Below, one piece after another: positions 48,680 to 55,120 of a DNA stretch of 64,000 nt. The notes under the pieces were generated by a model. The model worked only from the letters and a program-made list of their open reading frames with translations. It made no database searches and was not told the origin of the DNA. The stretch's first letter is position 1; every line of letters begins with the position of its first letter. Both the position numbers and the translations under genes were made by a program. Origin of the DNA: Escherichia coli O127:H6 str. E2348/69 (GTDB lineage Bacteria; Pseudomonadota; Gammaproteobacteria; Enterobacterales; Enterobacteriaceae); the NCBI RefSeq assembly GCF_000026545.1, contig NC_011601.1, one strand, 5' to 3'.

Positions 48680-49059
48680 TACTTCTCCGGTTAGTAAGAA
48701 AAAACGGAAGGAATGCTACCACTGCGAATTTAACCACTTACTGACATGGCTCACGATGTCACATATTGCACAGGCGCTGAGACTGATGACAAACACAGGA
48801 TTGCCTGATGCGCTACGCTTACCTGGCCTACCAGATAACTGCAATATATTGAATTTTCAAGATTATGTAGGCGAATAAGGCTTCATTCCGCATCCGCCAT
48901 AAACAATGTGCACTTTGCCACCAATTTGAGCGCCCCTTAAGGCGCTGATGTTTTTTTATCCTTCTCGTGCACATTGTGCCGCTTCTGCAATCAGCCGCAC
49001 ATCAGGTCGCGAAGTTGCCGCGGCGACCAGCCAGCGACATGCAGGGTTAAGTAGCGCGA

Positions 49060-50289
49060 TTAATCATGGGAAATTGCCTCTGCATGGGCGAGCAGGTATT
49101 GCTCCGCCTCACCGGACCAGATCCCCTGATGACGCGCCAGAATCGCCGCCAGTGCTTGATCCTGAATCTGCGTGAGTGACGTCAGCGGCAGGAATTTCCC
49201 GGTATACACCAGCTTTTTGCCGCCGCCGACGGCAGGCAATTCAAGCGTAGTTTCGCCCGCGGCATTCAGCCCAAGAATATGTGTTACCACTTTTGCGGCC
49301 TGCACTTTTTTCTCTTCAATCAATTTGACCGCTGCGCGCATGTCGTCGGTATTGCCGCCTGACGTGCCCACGTAGTGGGTAAATGCATAATGCACATCGT
49401 AGAAATTAATTGGCGCGCTGAAGTGCTTATCCTGCGGTCCGGCGAAGAAATTCAGACAACCATCTGTCGCCAGCAAGGAAGAGGCGAGAGTCACCAGTCC
49501 TTCATTAGGCACAAAGACGAAAATATCATCGAAGCCGTGACCGCCACTCAGTGCCATTAACGTATCAAATGCTGCATCGGCGGCATTGAGATAATGAATC
49601 AGTGTTTGCGGTTCTGATGGATAGTGCTTGCGCGCATAACTCAATTTGTCGTTGTCGGTATCGGTAATGACGAGCAGCGACGGGTTAACGGGTCCATGTA
49701 GCGCATAATCAATCGCCAGCAGCCCCATCGGGCCGGTGCCGCCGAGTATCAGCGTGCGCCCTTGCGGGCGAATCCCCATCGTGTGGTTATAACTACCTTC
49801 CTGAAGATGATAGTTGGCGTTGAACGCGCCAATCACGCAGGAAAGCGGTTCAACCAGCGAGCCTTCAAAATAGGTTTCGCCGTCGTATGCCAGCAGGCAA
49901 TCATGTTCCATGACCTCGTTGGGAATAACCACATGCGTCGCTTCGCCGCCTACCCACGGGAAGGAGTAGCCGGGGCAATCCGGGCGGTCGGGGAGTTGCA
50001 GGTTGGCCTGAATCACATAACGCTGACCCGGCTGGAATTTGTGCTGCCACTTTTTACCCACGGCCAGAATATCGCCGCAAAATTCGTGGCCGATGATGAT
50101 GGGATTGGTCGCCACATCGTCGGGTACTTTTTTATGGTTTTCACCCAGATTGGCCTCTTTCCAGGAAGAGAGGCACAGGCTGTCAGTGACCACCGTTGCG
50201 AGGATTTCATCCTCCTGCATTTCAGGAAGGTCAAAGGTTTCCAGACGCAGGTCACGTTTGCCATAAAGACGCAGAGCTGTTGTTTTCAT
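49060..50289 (-). CDS. sorE: zinc-dependent medium-chain dehydrogenase, probable L-sorbose-1-phosphate reductase
   Basis: ORF with GHEFCG zinc-binding motif and GGTGPMG Rossmann motif; start placed at Met-5 (MKTTALRLYG...) which has GAGGTGG Shine-Dalgarno; last gene of a sorCDFBAME-like cluster; symbol assigned by analogy to the Klebsiella sor operon. Confidence 0.75.
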   Translation of the reverse strand: MKTTALRLYGKRDLRLETFDLPEMQEDEILATVVTDSLCLSSWKEANLGENHKKVPDDVATNPIIIGHEFCGDILAVGKKWQHKFQPGQRYVIQANLQLPDRPDCPGYSFPWVGGEATHVVIPNEVMEHDCLLAYDGETYFEGSLVEPLSCVIGAFNANYHLQEGSYNHTMGIRPQGRTLILGGTGPMGLLAIDYALHGPVNPSLLVITDTDNDKLSYARKHYPSEPQTLIHYLNAADAAFDTLMALSGGHGFDDIFVFVPNEGLVTLASSLLATDGCLNFFAGPQDKHFSAPINFYDVHYAFTHYVGTSGGNTDDMRAAVKLIEEKKVQAAKVVTHILGLNAAGETTLELPAVGGGKKLVYTGKFLPLTSLTQIQDQALAAILARHQGIWSGEAEQYLLAHAEAISHD

Positions 50290-50340
50290 AAACCACCTCA
50301 TGTTGAGCGATGGCCCCGGCAGTCGTGCCGGGGCGAAGAA

Positions 50341-51195
50341 TCAGGACAGGAAGCCCAGCGCATTGCCGATAATCCCTAAGCCAAACAGGGCGAAAATCAG
50401 CCATACCGGGTTAATTTTTTTGTTGAGCAGACGAACCATCAGTAGCGTCAGACCGAGCGCCAGCAAACCAGGGCAAAGTTGGTCGAGAATGTTCTGCACG
50501 GTCATGGTGACGGTGGAGCCATCGGCGGCATGCGTTTGTGAAACCACCAACGGTACGTTGATTGACGTCCATTTGGTCACCAGCACGCCCATCACAAACA
50601 GTCCGAGAATCGACGCGCCTTCGGTGAGTTTTTGCAGCAAATTACCGCCCATATCGCTGACGATATTCACCCCTTTGCGAAAGCCGAGTTGTAGGCCATA
50701 CCACTTCATCGCCAGACGCACCGCGTTGAAAATAAAGAAAAACAGCAGCGGGCCGAGAATGTTGCCCGAAAGTGCCAGAGATGCGCCGAGCGCGGCGGTA
50801 ATCGGGCGCAGCGTTCCCCAGACCAGTGGATCGCCAACTCCTGCCAATGGTCCCATCAGACCGACTTTGATGCCGTTAATGGTACCGTCATCAATTTCCG
50901 CGCCGTTGGCCCGCGCCTCTTCCATGGCGGCAGTGACGCCGATGACCGGGCCACATACGGCTGGCGTGGTATTGAAGAACACCAGGTGTCGCCTGAGCGC
51001 CGCAACCTGATCCTCTTTTAATGGGTAAAGTCGCTTGATGGCGGGGATCATGTCGTAGCAAAAACCCAGCCCGTGAATACGTTCAAAGTTAAAGGACGCC
51101 TGTTGCAGGTTGGAGCGCAGAAACATGCTCACCAGATCGCTGCGTGTAATTTTTCTCTGTTCCATGATGGCTCCGTTAATCATCAAGTTGGTCAA
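50341..51195 (-). CDS. sorM: PTS mannose/sorbose-family EIID component
   Basis: 284-aa membrane ORF with IID-family features (…FNTTPAVCGPVIGVTAAMEE…), overlaps IIC gene stop. Confidence 0.8.
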   Translation of the reverse strand: MTNLMINGAIMEQRKITRSDLVSMFLRSNLQQASFNFERIHGLGFCYDMIPAIKRLYPLKEDQVAALRRHLVFFNTTPAVCGPVIGVTAAMEEARANGAEIDDGTINGIKVGLMGPLAGVGDPLVWGTLRPITAALGASLALSGNILGPLLFFFIFNAVRLAMKWYGLQLGFRKGVNIVSDMGGNLLQKLTEGASILGLFVMGVLVTKWTSINVPLVVSQTHAADGSTVTMTVQNILDQLCPGLLALGLTLLMVRLLNKKINPVWLIFALFGLGIIGNALGFLS

Positions 51196-53756: not shown

Positions 53757-53825
53757 AACAGACTCCTGATTTTAGATAATAGGTACCCGCCGTAATTTTT
53801 ATTACGGTAAACATCGGGAAGATTT

Positions 53826-54773
53826 TTATTTCAGTAATAGTTCAGCTGTGCTGCTATTCGTTACCAGACAATTAATATATTTTCCACGCAGTGCACCAAC
53901 AATTCCGCTGTATTTTTCTTCGCTCATGGCAATGCCAATGGAATACCGTGCCTGCTTCAATTTATTCATTTCGATAGAGAGTGTTTTTTCGCTCATATTC
54001 GTTTCAACCATTGCGCCGTGAATATCAAAAAAGCGCGAGCAAATATCGCCAGCAACCTGGCGGGCATTCAGGTCGTCACTCTCTTCACCACCATAAAACG
54101 CATGCCAGTTAGCGCCGTCGCGAATGGCCGGTGAGCCAATTCCCACCAGGGCGACATCCAGATTATCCCAGTAGGCAGAGATGGTTTTAAAGTGCTGAGA
54201 CTGCATGATCCCATTACGAATTAATGGGTTATCCAGCAGAGCCGGAAAATCCGCGAGATGAGATTCCCCTTTCAGCTTCGCTGCCGCGCTGTAGGATAAT
54301 GTGTTTACGTGATAGCGGCTTTCGAGTTTACCGGACGGGCCGCCAATAATCGGCACGCAAATTAACTGCCGCGATTGCCCCGCCTGCGGCAAGTTTTCAA
54401 CCAGTGCGCTCACCGCGCGACCCCAGGAAAAACCGACAATATCGCCAGGTTCCAGCAAGCGATCCAGCAGTTGCGCGCCGTGTAACCCCATCATCGCCAG
54501 TTGAGTATCTTCATCCTCATCATTTCCTGACACCACCACAACGTCTTTCAGGCCAAACTTTTGCTTCACTTGCTGCTCCAGCCAGAGATTTCCGTTGTAG
54601 TCATAGTTGATGGCGATGGTGACAATTCCCTGATCGCGGCCTCGTTTAAGCAAGCGGCTGATGGTGGTGCGGTAAATACCCAGTTCGCGCGCAATTTGCG
54701 CCTGCGTCATATCCTGTTCGTAATAGAGTTGGGCAATCTTCACAATCAAACGGATATCGTCACTGTTTTCCAT
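53826..54773 (-). CDS. sorC: SorC-family transcriptional regulator (HTH plus sugar-phosphate binding domain)
   Basis: Start placed at internal ATG 54771-54773 preceded by AGGAGG; MENSDDIRLIVKIAQLYYEQDMTQAQIARELGIYRTTISRLLKRGRDQGIVTI...; track ORF N-extension rejected. Confidence 0.8.
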   Translation of the reverse strand: MENSDDIRLIVKIAQLYYEQDMTQAQIARELGIYRTTISRLLKRGRDQGIVTIAINYDYNGNLWLEQQVKQKFGLKDVVVVSGNDEDEDTQLAMMGLHGAQLLDRLLEPGDIVGFSWGRAVSALVENLPQAGQSRQLICVPIIGGPSGKLESRYHVNTLSYSAAAKLKGESHLADFPALLDNPLIRNGIMQSQHFKTISAYWDNLDVALVGIGSPAIRDGANWHAFYGGEESDDLNARQVAGDICSRFFDIHGAMVETNMSEKTLSIEMNKLKQARYSIGIAMSEEKYSGIVGALRGKYINCLVTNSSTAELLLK

Positions 54774-55120
54774 TGCCGCCTCCTGGTTCTGCACATTTGT
54801 GCAAATACGCTTTCTCACCGCTTGATCTGATATAACCCCATCATGATGGCCTTTCAAAGCGATTTTTCACTCTTTGTATGGGGGGAAATAGCGCTTTCTC
54901 TTGCACATTTGTTTCTCTGCGTAGTAGTCATCAGCACAGGTGTGCAGCGATTCGTAATTTGTTGATTATCCTTATTTTGCCAGGCAAATTTGCATCGTAC
55001 TTCCGGAGACACTTTTGTGATAAAAGGCGTGGCAGATCACATTTAATTTCGACGTTGCCGCATAACCCTGTTTTTCCCTGCTAAGAGGTACGGTATATTC
55101 CGCGTTTTACAGGAGAATTT

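Follow-up and report, generated by a model that had tools for sequence, protein, structure and literature searches.

The L-sorbose operon between pepE and rluF in Escherichia coli O127:H6 str. E2348/69 and the remnant of an eighth gene

Genes and products of the pepE-rluF interval

The region described here is the interval between the genes pepE and rluF of Escherichia coli O127:H6 str. E2348/69. The DNA analysed, called the window, is a stretch of 64,000 nucleotides (nt) from contig NC_011601.1 (RefSeq assembly GCF_000026545.1), in which the interval covers positions 48680-55120 and is filled by seven co-directional minus-strand open reading frames (ORFs), as found by an ORF scan. The cluster is almost certainly the chromosomal L-sorbose operon sorCDFBAME of E. 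coli, with all seven ORFs intact. Gene boundaries are those of the RefSeq annotation of the record for E2348/69, an enteropathogenic E. coli (EPEC) strain; this record is 100% identical to the interval over all 6,441 bases in a megablast search of 5,426 complete E. coli genomes. The genes, which encode a regulator, two sugar-phosphate oxidoreductases and the components of a phosphotransferase system (PTS), and their flanks are:

55121-55993, plus strand: rluF, flank of the sor cluster
53826-54773, minus strand: sorC, SorC-family regulator of 315 residues with an N-terminal helix-turn-helix (HTH) and a sugar-phosphate-binding domain, RefSeq start
52950-53756, minus strand: sorD, D-glucitol(sorbitol)-6-phosphate dehydrogenase of the short-chain dehydrogenase/reductase (SDR) type, 268 residues
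52533-52940, minus strand: sorF, PTS enzyme IIA (EIIA-Sor), 135 residues
52039-52533, minus strand: sorB, PTS enzyme IIB (EIIB-Sor), 164 residues, start codon overlapping the sorF stop by 1 nt
51176-51973, minus strand: sorA, PTS enzyme IIC (EIIC-Sor), 265 residues
50341-51165, minus strand: sorM, PTS enzyme IID (EIID-Sor), 274 residues, RefSeq start
49060-50289, minus strand: sorE, L-sorbose-1-phosphate reductase (RefSeq name), 409 residues, zinc-type medium-chain dehydrogenase/reductase fold
47990-48679, minus strand: pepE, flank of the sor cluster

From sorC to sorE the intergenic gaps are 69, 9, -1 (a TGATG overlap), 65, 10 and 51 nt, which is typical operon packing. The sorC start is backed by an alignment over residues 1-315 to Klebsiella SorC; a longer TTG-initiated sorC ORF, which extends to 54857 in the ORF scan, is unsupported, and the RefSeq start and this alignment favour 54773. 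The 380 bp that separate sorE from pepE contain the remnant of an eighth gene (85 bp) and a pair of repetitive extragenic palindromic (REP) elements. An earlier note, made from the letters of this DNA, had described seven co-directional minus-strand genes with overlapping or closely spaced stops and starts; the ORF scan and the gap lengths agree with it down to the exact interval, so its inventory stands for the seven genes and falls short at the eighth-gene remnant and the REP pair, which it overlooked.

SorC matches PF04198 at 268 bits in the Pfam scan and aligns with the crystallised SorC of Klebsiella pneumoniae (PDB 2W48) at 604 bits over residues 1-315, being near-identical throughout. 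SorD is recognised in the NCBIfam scan by NF004817, the model of the sorbitol-6-phosphate dehydrogenase subunit (501 bits, cut-off 304), carries the motifs TGGASGIG and YAATK and shares 90% identity with the syntenic Klebsiella gene. The IIA, IIB, IIC and IID components all pass the cut-offs of Man-family TIGR models, and their phospho-histidine motifs were read from the sequence. SorF matches TIGR00824 at 145 bits (cut-off 98) and has a histidine at residue 9, near the N-terminus, while SorB matches TIGR00854 at 223 bits, above the cut-off, and contains the phospho-histidine motif RIDDRLIHGQV. SorA and SorM match TIGR00822 (422 bits, cut-off 340) and TIGR00828 (472 bits, cut-off 293), respectively. 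SorE passes the PF08240 cut-off and narrowly misses that of PF00107 (29.6 bits, cut-off 31.8); it has the motifs GHE and GTGPMG and is 86% identical to the syntenic Klebsiella gene.

The PTS subunits are closer to Sor than to Man proteins in every comparison. SorB aligns with the IIB-Sor of K. pneumoniae (PDB 1NRZ) at 305 bits and with the IIB domain of ManX (1VSQ) at 171 bits, and its identity is 88% to syntenic Klebsiella SorB and 52% to K-12 ManX. For SorF, identity is 78% with the syntenic Klebsiella protein and 32% with the IIA domain of ManX; for SorA it is 94% with the Klebsiella orthologue and 63% with ManY, and for SorM 96% with the Klebsiella orthologue and 62.5% with ManZ. Together, the seven products show 78-96% identity to the syntenic Klebsiella operon, and the PTS subunits 32-63% to K-12 ManXYZ. 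The families listed in the earlier note (a SorC regulator, an SDR, Man-family IIA, IIB, IIC and IID, and a zinc-dependent reductase) are those returned by the family scans, and its Sor symbols, given by analogy to Klebsiella, are borne out by the same gene order and by the SorC and IIB scores. It had also named greater similarity to mannose-type systems as a result that would speak against Sor, and the opposite was found (305 against 171 bits for IIB; 78/88/94/96% against 32/52/63/63%).

L-sorbose would be taken up and phosphorylated to L-sorbose-1-phosphate by this mannose-family PTS, in which the phosphoryl group would pass from phosphoenolpyruvate to enzyme I, HPr, SorF (IIA), SorB (IIB) and the sugar, with translocation through SorA and SorM (IIC and IID). 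SorE would reduce L-sorbose-1-phosphate to D-glucitol-6-phosphate, and SorD would oxidise the latter to D-fructose-6-phosphate, which would enter glycolysis. This assignment of genes to steps (SorFBAM for transport, SorE as the reductase and SorD as the dehydrogenase) is taken from the naming of the Klebsiella genes, and the family matches agree with it. The route from L-sorbose through L-sorbose-1-phosphate and D-glucitol-6-phosphate to D-fructose-6-phosphate was established for Klebsiella and for Sor+ E. coli (PMC13410766, citing Sprenger & Lengeler 1984). Work on this operon in other E. coli strains has documented L-sorbose uptake, growth and induction (PMC12817954, PMC13410766, PMC2808357). 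In sequence types (ST) ST131 and ST648 the seven sor genes are the top L-sorbose-induced genes, deletion of sorE or sorAM lowers growth or competition, and a sor knock-in gives an ST10 strain a competitive advantage; SorC is a repressor without L-sorbose and an activator with it (PMC12817954). In enteroaggregative E. coli (EAEC) 042, sorEMABFDC adjoins rluF and the strain uses L-sorbose, while MG1655 has neither the operon nor L-sorbose use (PMC2808357).

Two points weigh against the identification as a sor operon. SorE reaches the cut-off of no NCBIfam equivalog, its best match in that scan being far below; the name is kept on the strength of the RefSeq annotation as "sorE: L-sorbose 1-phosphate reductase", of synteny and the 86% Klebsiella identity, and of a published sorE knockout in a related strain. 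In addition, the identities given for SorD, SorF, SorA, SorM and SorE refer to syntenic orthologues of the Klebsiella oxytoca group and not to the characterised proteins of K. pneumoniae KAY2026. No evidence that contradicts the sor identification was met. The PTS could instead serve another mannose-family substrate (mannose, fructose, or fructoselysine/glucoselysine), with dehydrogenases for a different sugar, an idea that draws on the lack of an equivalog model for SorE, on IIC and IID being still 63% identical to ManY and ManZ, and on the generic "mannose/fructose/sorbose" scope of the NCBIfam and Pfam IIA-IID models. It is nevertheless scarcely credible, with IIB and SorC near-identical to experimentally characterised Klebsiella Sor proteins and the gene order that of the published sorCDFBAME. 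Fructoselysine-type loci carry a sigma-54 regulator and a deglycase, and the ORF scan shows neither. Moreover, studies of this very operon in E. coli report L-sorbose induction and phenotypes for the sorE and sorAM knockouts and for the knock-in (PMC12817954, PMC13410766).

The control region upstream of sorC

Relatives of the locus were collected by a SorE scan of species-representative genomes followed by tblastn mapping of all neighbours, and 82 loci were fetched. The spacer between rluF and sorC is 347-349 bp long in genomes from Escherichia to Cedecea, and an alignment of 14 such spacers, whose column numbers are used below, was used to find conserved elements:

54774-55085, minus strand: sor control region, a stretch of the rluF-sorC spacer missing in K-12, from the alignment of spacers
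54790-54803, minus strand: perfect palindrome TGCACAAATGTGCA, candidate primary SorC operator, between the presumed -10 and the sorC ribosome-binding site
54825-54857, minus strand: presumed sor promoter, TTGAAA (54857-54852), a 17-nt spacer and TATATC (54834-54829)
54902-54912, minus strand: half-site copy ACAAATGTGCA, a direct repeat 112 bp upstream of TGCACAAATGTGCA, invariant columns 213-223
54933-54946, minus strand: related palindrome GCACA-N3-GTGC (inverted repeat I1), with invariant CACA/GTGC columns and 3 mismatches to the operator pattern
55009-55041, minus strand: conserved block TGTGATC...ACAAAAGTG, invariant columns 83-89 and 107-114

The palindrome TGCACAAATGTGCA is invariant in 13 of the 14 aligned spacers, with one substitution in Pseudocitrobacter, and is the sole perfect match to its pattern within the 64-kb window. 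Matches with at most 3 mismatches number 8 across the window against 8.7 expected by chance; this count equals chance, so that only the exact copy, its conservation and the clustering of sites around it weigh for an operator. SorC would act through TGCACAAATGTGCA, which lies just downstream of the presumed promoter, and through two related upstream sites; candidate sites on both sides of the promoter would fit the dual role of SorC as repressor and activator. The conserved elements thus suggest a three-site layout of candidate SorC operators.

The presumed -10 element, TATATC, lies inside the invariant block GTTATATCAGAT (columns 288-299), and transcription would be predicted to start near 54822. 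As counterweights, a sigma-70 consensus scan gave no promoter upstream of sorC and overall fewer sites than in shuffled sequences, and both the promoter and the operators are presumed from cross-genus conservation alone. The presumed promoter was missed by the consensus scan because its -10 has no terminal T. The TGTGATC block, which contains TGTGA, was tried as a CRP dyad and rejected, as no TCACA partner stands at the 6-nt spacing. An Rfam scan of 45000-58800 gave nothing in the sor region.

Longer rluF-sorC spacers also occur among the fetched loci. In several genomes of Citrobacter, Klebsiella, Raoultella and Enterobacter (loci L007, L009, L020, L023, L030 and L035) the spacer measures 470-475 bp, compared with about 348 bp, and it reaches 424 bp in locus L021 and 562 bp in locus L018; these lengths point to an insert of about 125 bp in the control region, possibly a small repeat element.

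The eighth gene and the 3' end of the operon

The sequence between sorE and pepE contains three features:

48956-49040, minus strand: stump of sdhL (shikimate-dehydrogenase-like), 85 bp, which reads MSLAGRRGNFAT up to a stop
48929-48946, no strand assigned: GC-rich terminator-like hairpin just past the sdhL stump, T-run on the plus strand
48803-48900, no strand assigned: inverted pair of REP-like palindromes resembling a bacterial interspersed mosaic element (units about 48803-48831 and 48867-48900), read from the sequence

The stump was defined by alignment to E. whittamii, to a second Escherichia lineage and to E. coli ECONIH1, in all of which the gene, for a protein of 261 residues, is intact. 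Of sdhL it keeps some 30 nt at the 5' end and 55 nt at the 3' end, which meet at the junction 49011/49010 of a 701-bp internal deletion, and its frame stops after 12 codons, far from a full-length shikimate-dehydrogenase-like (SDH-L) protein of about 261-272 residues with Shikimate_dh_N and NAD(P)-binding domains. The intact protein matches NF009202 at 444 bits (cut-off 306), the Pfam scan concurs on the shikimate-5-dehydrogenase family, and it aligns over its full length, at 361 bits, with Haemophilus influenzae HI0607, named "SDH-L" (PDB 1NPY).

The 701-bp deletion junction is found exactly in 2,570 E. coli genomes, O157 strains among them, and intact sdhL in only 177; in ECONIH1 the gene (WP_000610344.1) is annotated as the one that directly follows sorE. 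Most Enterobacteriaceae have an intact sdhL behind sorE, and among 30 sor loci of Enterobacterales it begins about 20 nt past the sorE stop in roughly 26. Mangrovibacter and Cedecea have fragments only, and the gene is absent in the distant sor-like loci of Enterococcus and Gilliamella. A published study reports sdhL beside the ST648 sor operon, where it is L-sorbose-induced and was taken as an ST-specific insertion, and ST131 as being without it (PMC12817954). The present comparison differs from that view, as it indicates that sdhL was ancestral to the operon and was deleted in most E. coli. Its removal from most E. coli by the 701-bp deletion would predate the loss of sor discussed below.

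The superfamily of shikimate dehydrogenases includes 5-keto-D-fructose reductases (PDB 7COK; PMC7954740), and a ketohexose-related role for SDH-L is therefore conceivable. A wider proposal, put forward tentatively and with less than even confidence, is that the ancestral sor operon had eight genes, that sdhL encoded a sorbose-linked ketohexose/hexitol(-phosphate) oxidoreductase rather than an enzyme of the aromatic pathway, that the gene decayed independently in several lineages, and that the ST648 copy is the retained state.

The sdhL deletion also bears on whether the operon works in this strain. The locus could be a functional pseudo-operon, present but silent or decaying, for example through polar effects of the sdhL deletion or through nearby insertion sequence (IS) activity, in keeping with the destroyed 3' neighbour, with two nested IS elements 1 kb away and with the absence of the entire locus from about half of E. 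coli. Yet the seven ORFs are full-length and match the E2348/69 RefSeq proteins, every conserved motif is present in the control region, and the deletion junction is common to the 2,570 genomes noted above. ST131 is reported to be without sdhL and still induces the operon and benefits from L-sorbose (PMC12817954). A silent operon is thus very improbable, and the cluster is better regarded as an intact L-sorbose operon.

The hairpin at 48929-48946 is kept in E. whittamii and in locus L006, where it follows an intact sdhL. Relative to the sor operon it is oriented as an opposite-strand terminator, and the sorE 3' region shows no excess of RNA structure over shuffled sequences (z -0.47). The inverted repeat ACAATGTGCAC/GTGCACATTGT (48903-48913 and 48967-48977) was tried as a fourth SorC site or as a structured terminator and rejected because one arm lies inside the sdhL 3' remnant, the repeat is not kept in E. 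whittamii, and the RNA folding result is the one just given. The REP-like pair is shared with E. whittamii, whose copy has the sequence GCCGGATGCGGCGTGAACGCCTTATCCGGCCTAC, which we take to be the REP consensus, and is absent from the ECONIH1-type spacer and from K-12.

Age of the locus and comparison with known systems

In K-12 MG1655, pepE (b4021) and rluF (b4022) are neighbours 211 bp apart, and homology to the window ends at about 48770 and resumes at 55086. The earlier note had described the two genes as adjacent in K-12, which is right, and had held that a K-12 copy of the cluster at this site would undo its reading, and K-12 is without the cluster. It had further described the cluster as an island inserted between pepE and rluF; this is probably the wrong polarity, given the synteny across genera and the concentration of absence in phylogroups A and B1.

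The order lysC-yjbD-rluF / sorCDFBAME / ... pepE is found in E. whittamii and other Escherichia, in Pseudocitrobacter, in at least seven Citrobacter genomes, in five Klebsiella species, and in Raoultella and Enterobacter; in E. albertii the sorE-pepE side is seen on a partial contig. The synteny of rluF, sor and pepE, in site and in orientation, thus extends over at least six genera. In Escherichia, Citrobacter, Klebsiella and Raoultella the Sor proteins have diverged roughly as far as the core proteins on either side, as in these mean identities to the window:

Citrobacter: Sor proteins 91-92%, flanking proteins 90-92%
Klebsiella: Sor proteins 87-88%, flanking proteins 90-91%

Among the complete E. 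coli genomes, 2,865 carry sor and 2,557 show an empty site of the K-12 type, which makes 5,422 of the 5,426 together. The empty-site allele is at least 99% identical across E. coli, and this near-invariance fits a single recent origin. The sor operon is reported in >86% of the genomes of each phylogroup except A (9.6%) and B1 (12.1%) (PMC12817954). Cross-genus synteny and an absence concentrated in phylogroups A and B1 make loss in the K-12 lineage likelier than gain in the lineage of E2348/69. From these comparisons, sor is most likely an old Enterobacteriaceae resident of the rluF-pepE interval, which was lost in the K-12 lineage. The loss would have replaced sor by 86 bp in the lineage that led to K-12 and to most phylogroup A and B1 strains.

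These 86 bp (K-12 locus 4234-4319) stand opposite window positions 48774-55085. The presumed rluF -35 element falls within this non-homologous K-12 part, and rluF may thus use a different upstream sequence in sor+ and sor- strains.

Several results complicate the picture of loss in the K-12 lineage. In a semi-global comparison of both strands with the whole 6.3-kb sor segment, the 86 bp score 6-7 (shuffled sequences 7.2±2.2), and in a blastn-short search of all 82 loci they match by chance 12-14-mers only; without homology of the 86 bp, the sor+ and sor- alleles differ by replacement and not by a simple indel. Aimed at a deletion scar at the K-12 site, these comparisons showed neither a clean deletion nor a clean insertion. 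Furthermore, in the three genomes with the most distant flanks, namely Cedecea colo, Enterobacter sp. Cy-643 and Enterobacteriaceae RIT693, the Sor proteins are 86-88% identical to those of the window and the flanks 78-79%, and a higher conservation of Sor than of flanks would also fit transfer by recombination.

The opposite history, in which sor is an accessory island recently acquired by horizontal transfer in this lineage and the K-12 empty site is ancestral, draws on these three genomes, on the unrelated 86 bp of a K-12 site that is no simple deletion derivative, on the split of E. coli into 2,865 sor+ and 2,557 empty genomes, and on the IS elements and REP sequences close by. It would leave unexplained, however, the sharing by at least six genera of one insertion point, one orientation and a spacer of 347-349 bp, the rough agreement between Sor and flank divergence in the four genera named above, the carriage above 86% in all phylogroups but A and B1 (PMC12817954), the presence in E. 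albertii and E. whittamii, and the near-invariant empty allele. The GC content of sor, about 0.41-0.58 in 500-bp windows and mostly 0.52-0.55, overlaps that of the surrounding sequence, and no integrase, tRNA or flanking direct repeats were seen at the sor junctions; the marks by which genomic islands are recognised (composition, mobility genes or att junctions, incongruent distribution) are not those of the sor locus. Recent acquisition is therefore unlikely, and old residence with loss in the K-12 lineage is preferred.

Other differences and mobile elements lie near the locus. A 1,374-bp ISEc21 element of the IS110 family (46241-47614), with an ORF at 46522-47598 that matches NF033542 at 198 bits, is nested in a copy of IS1397 (IS3 family) between yjbB and pepE, at about 45127-47933. 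ISEc21 is absent in the E2348/69 assembly CP059840.2 and present in two O127:H6 records. The ISEc21-in-IS1397 junction is identical in 414 genomes at quite different record coordinates between strains, which points either to IS1397 being targeted site-specifically or to a composite element that has spread. Between metH and yjbB, about 1 kb (42411-43426) is missing in K-12 and present in 1,132 of the 5,426 E. coli genomes; it holds two plus-strand ORFs (42474-42800 and 42843-43292), which have no Pfam match and are annotated as hypothetical. On the other side, rluF and yjbD are separated by about 122 bp in K-12 (K-12 locus 5237-5358) and abut at 55993/55994 in the window. The only match in the Rfam scan of 45000-58800 is the lysine riboswitch upstream of lysC (57961-58157, minus strand, RF00168, 99.5 bits), which is expected and already annotated.

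Among distant relatives, the sor-like loci of Gilliamella (L036-L046), Enterococcus (L032 and L034) and Anaerostipes (L047) keep the IIA-IIB-IIC-IID-SorE block, and SorC and SorD are rearranged or absent. Many loci of metagenome-assembled genomes (Lentisphaerae, Kiritimatiellae and Spirochaetes) have SorE homologues at about 50% identity and no adjacent PTS, so that SorE-like reductases also occur outside PTS-sorbose operons.

As an accessory catabolic locus sor is textbook material, and its absence from K-12 is a known trait; RefSeq annotates it, and recent papers have linked it to fitness in pathogenic E. coli lineages. The view of an ancient resident lost by K-12 matters where sor serves as a "pathogen marker", and the ancestral linkage of the decayed sdhL to sor is a testable hint on the function of the SDH-L subfamily. 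What is mildly new here is the direction of change proposed for the presence or absence of sor and of sdhL, together with the stump of sdhL and the conserved layout of candidate operators; the identity of the locus is unchanged.

The sor locus of E. coli is already known: its map position dates from 1992, the EAEC 042 genome paper reports it next to rluF, and functional studies appeared in 2025-26. According to the title of Wehmeier et al. 1992 (J Bacteriol 174:7784, as cited in PMC9836092), sor genes of E. coli lie "near metH and iclR", and metH is within the window, its ORF ending at 42420. The earlier note had mentioned a sor locus near 91 min in some non-K-12 E. coli, which agrees with that title and with metH in the window. 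The present locus is the published one, with rluF and the metH side as neighbours in both cases, and the absence from MG1655 and the patchy distribution are likewise on record.

The K. pneumoniae sor operon, described by the Lengeler laboratory, has the identical seven genes in the same order and orientation, and in genomes of the K. oxytoca group the neighbour on the rluF side is also the same. The E. coli locus differs from the Klebsiella one by protein identities of 78-96% (oxytoca group) and by an sdhL cut down to the 85-bp stump. E. coli ManXYZ shares the PTS family and the IIA, IIB, IIC and IID folds at the identities given above, but ManX has IIA and IIB fused, which are separate polypeptides at the sor locus, and ManXYZ is a stand-alone transporter, whereas the sor PTS genes are linked to SorC, SorD and SorE. 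SorC shows the architecture of the SorC/DeoR/CggR/LsrR regulators, an HTH followed by a sugar-phosphate-binding domain, and DeoR and CggR, of the SorC-type family, form tetrameric assemblies on DNA according to the title of PMC11229326. Finally, HI0607 of H. influenzae is a functionally orphan orthologue of sdhL, whereas the enterobacterial sdhL is attached about 20 nt downstream of sorE.

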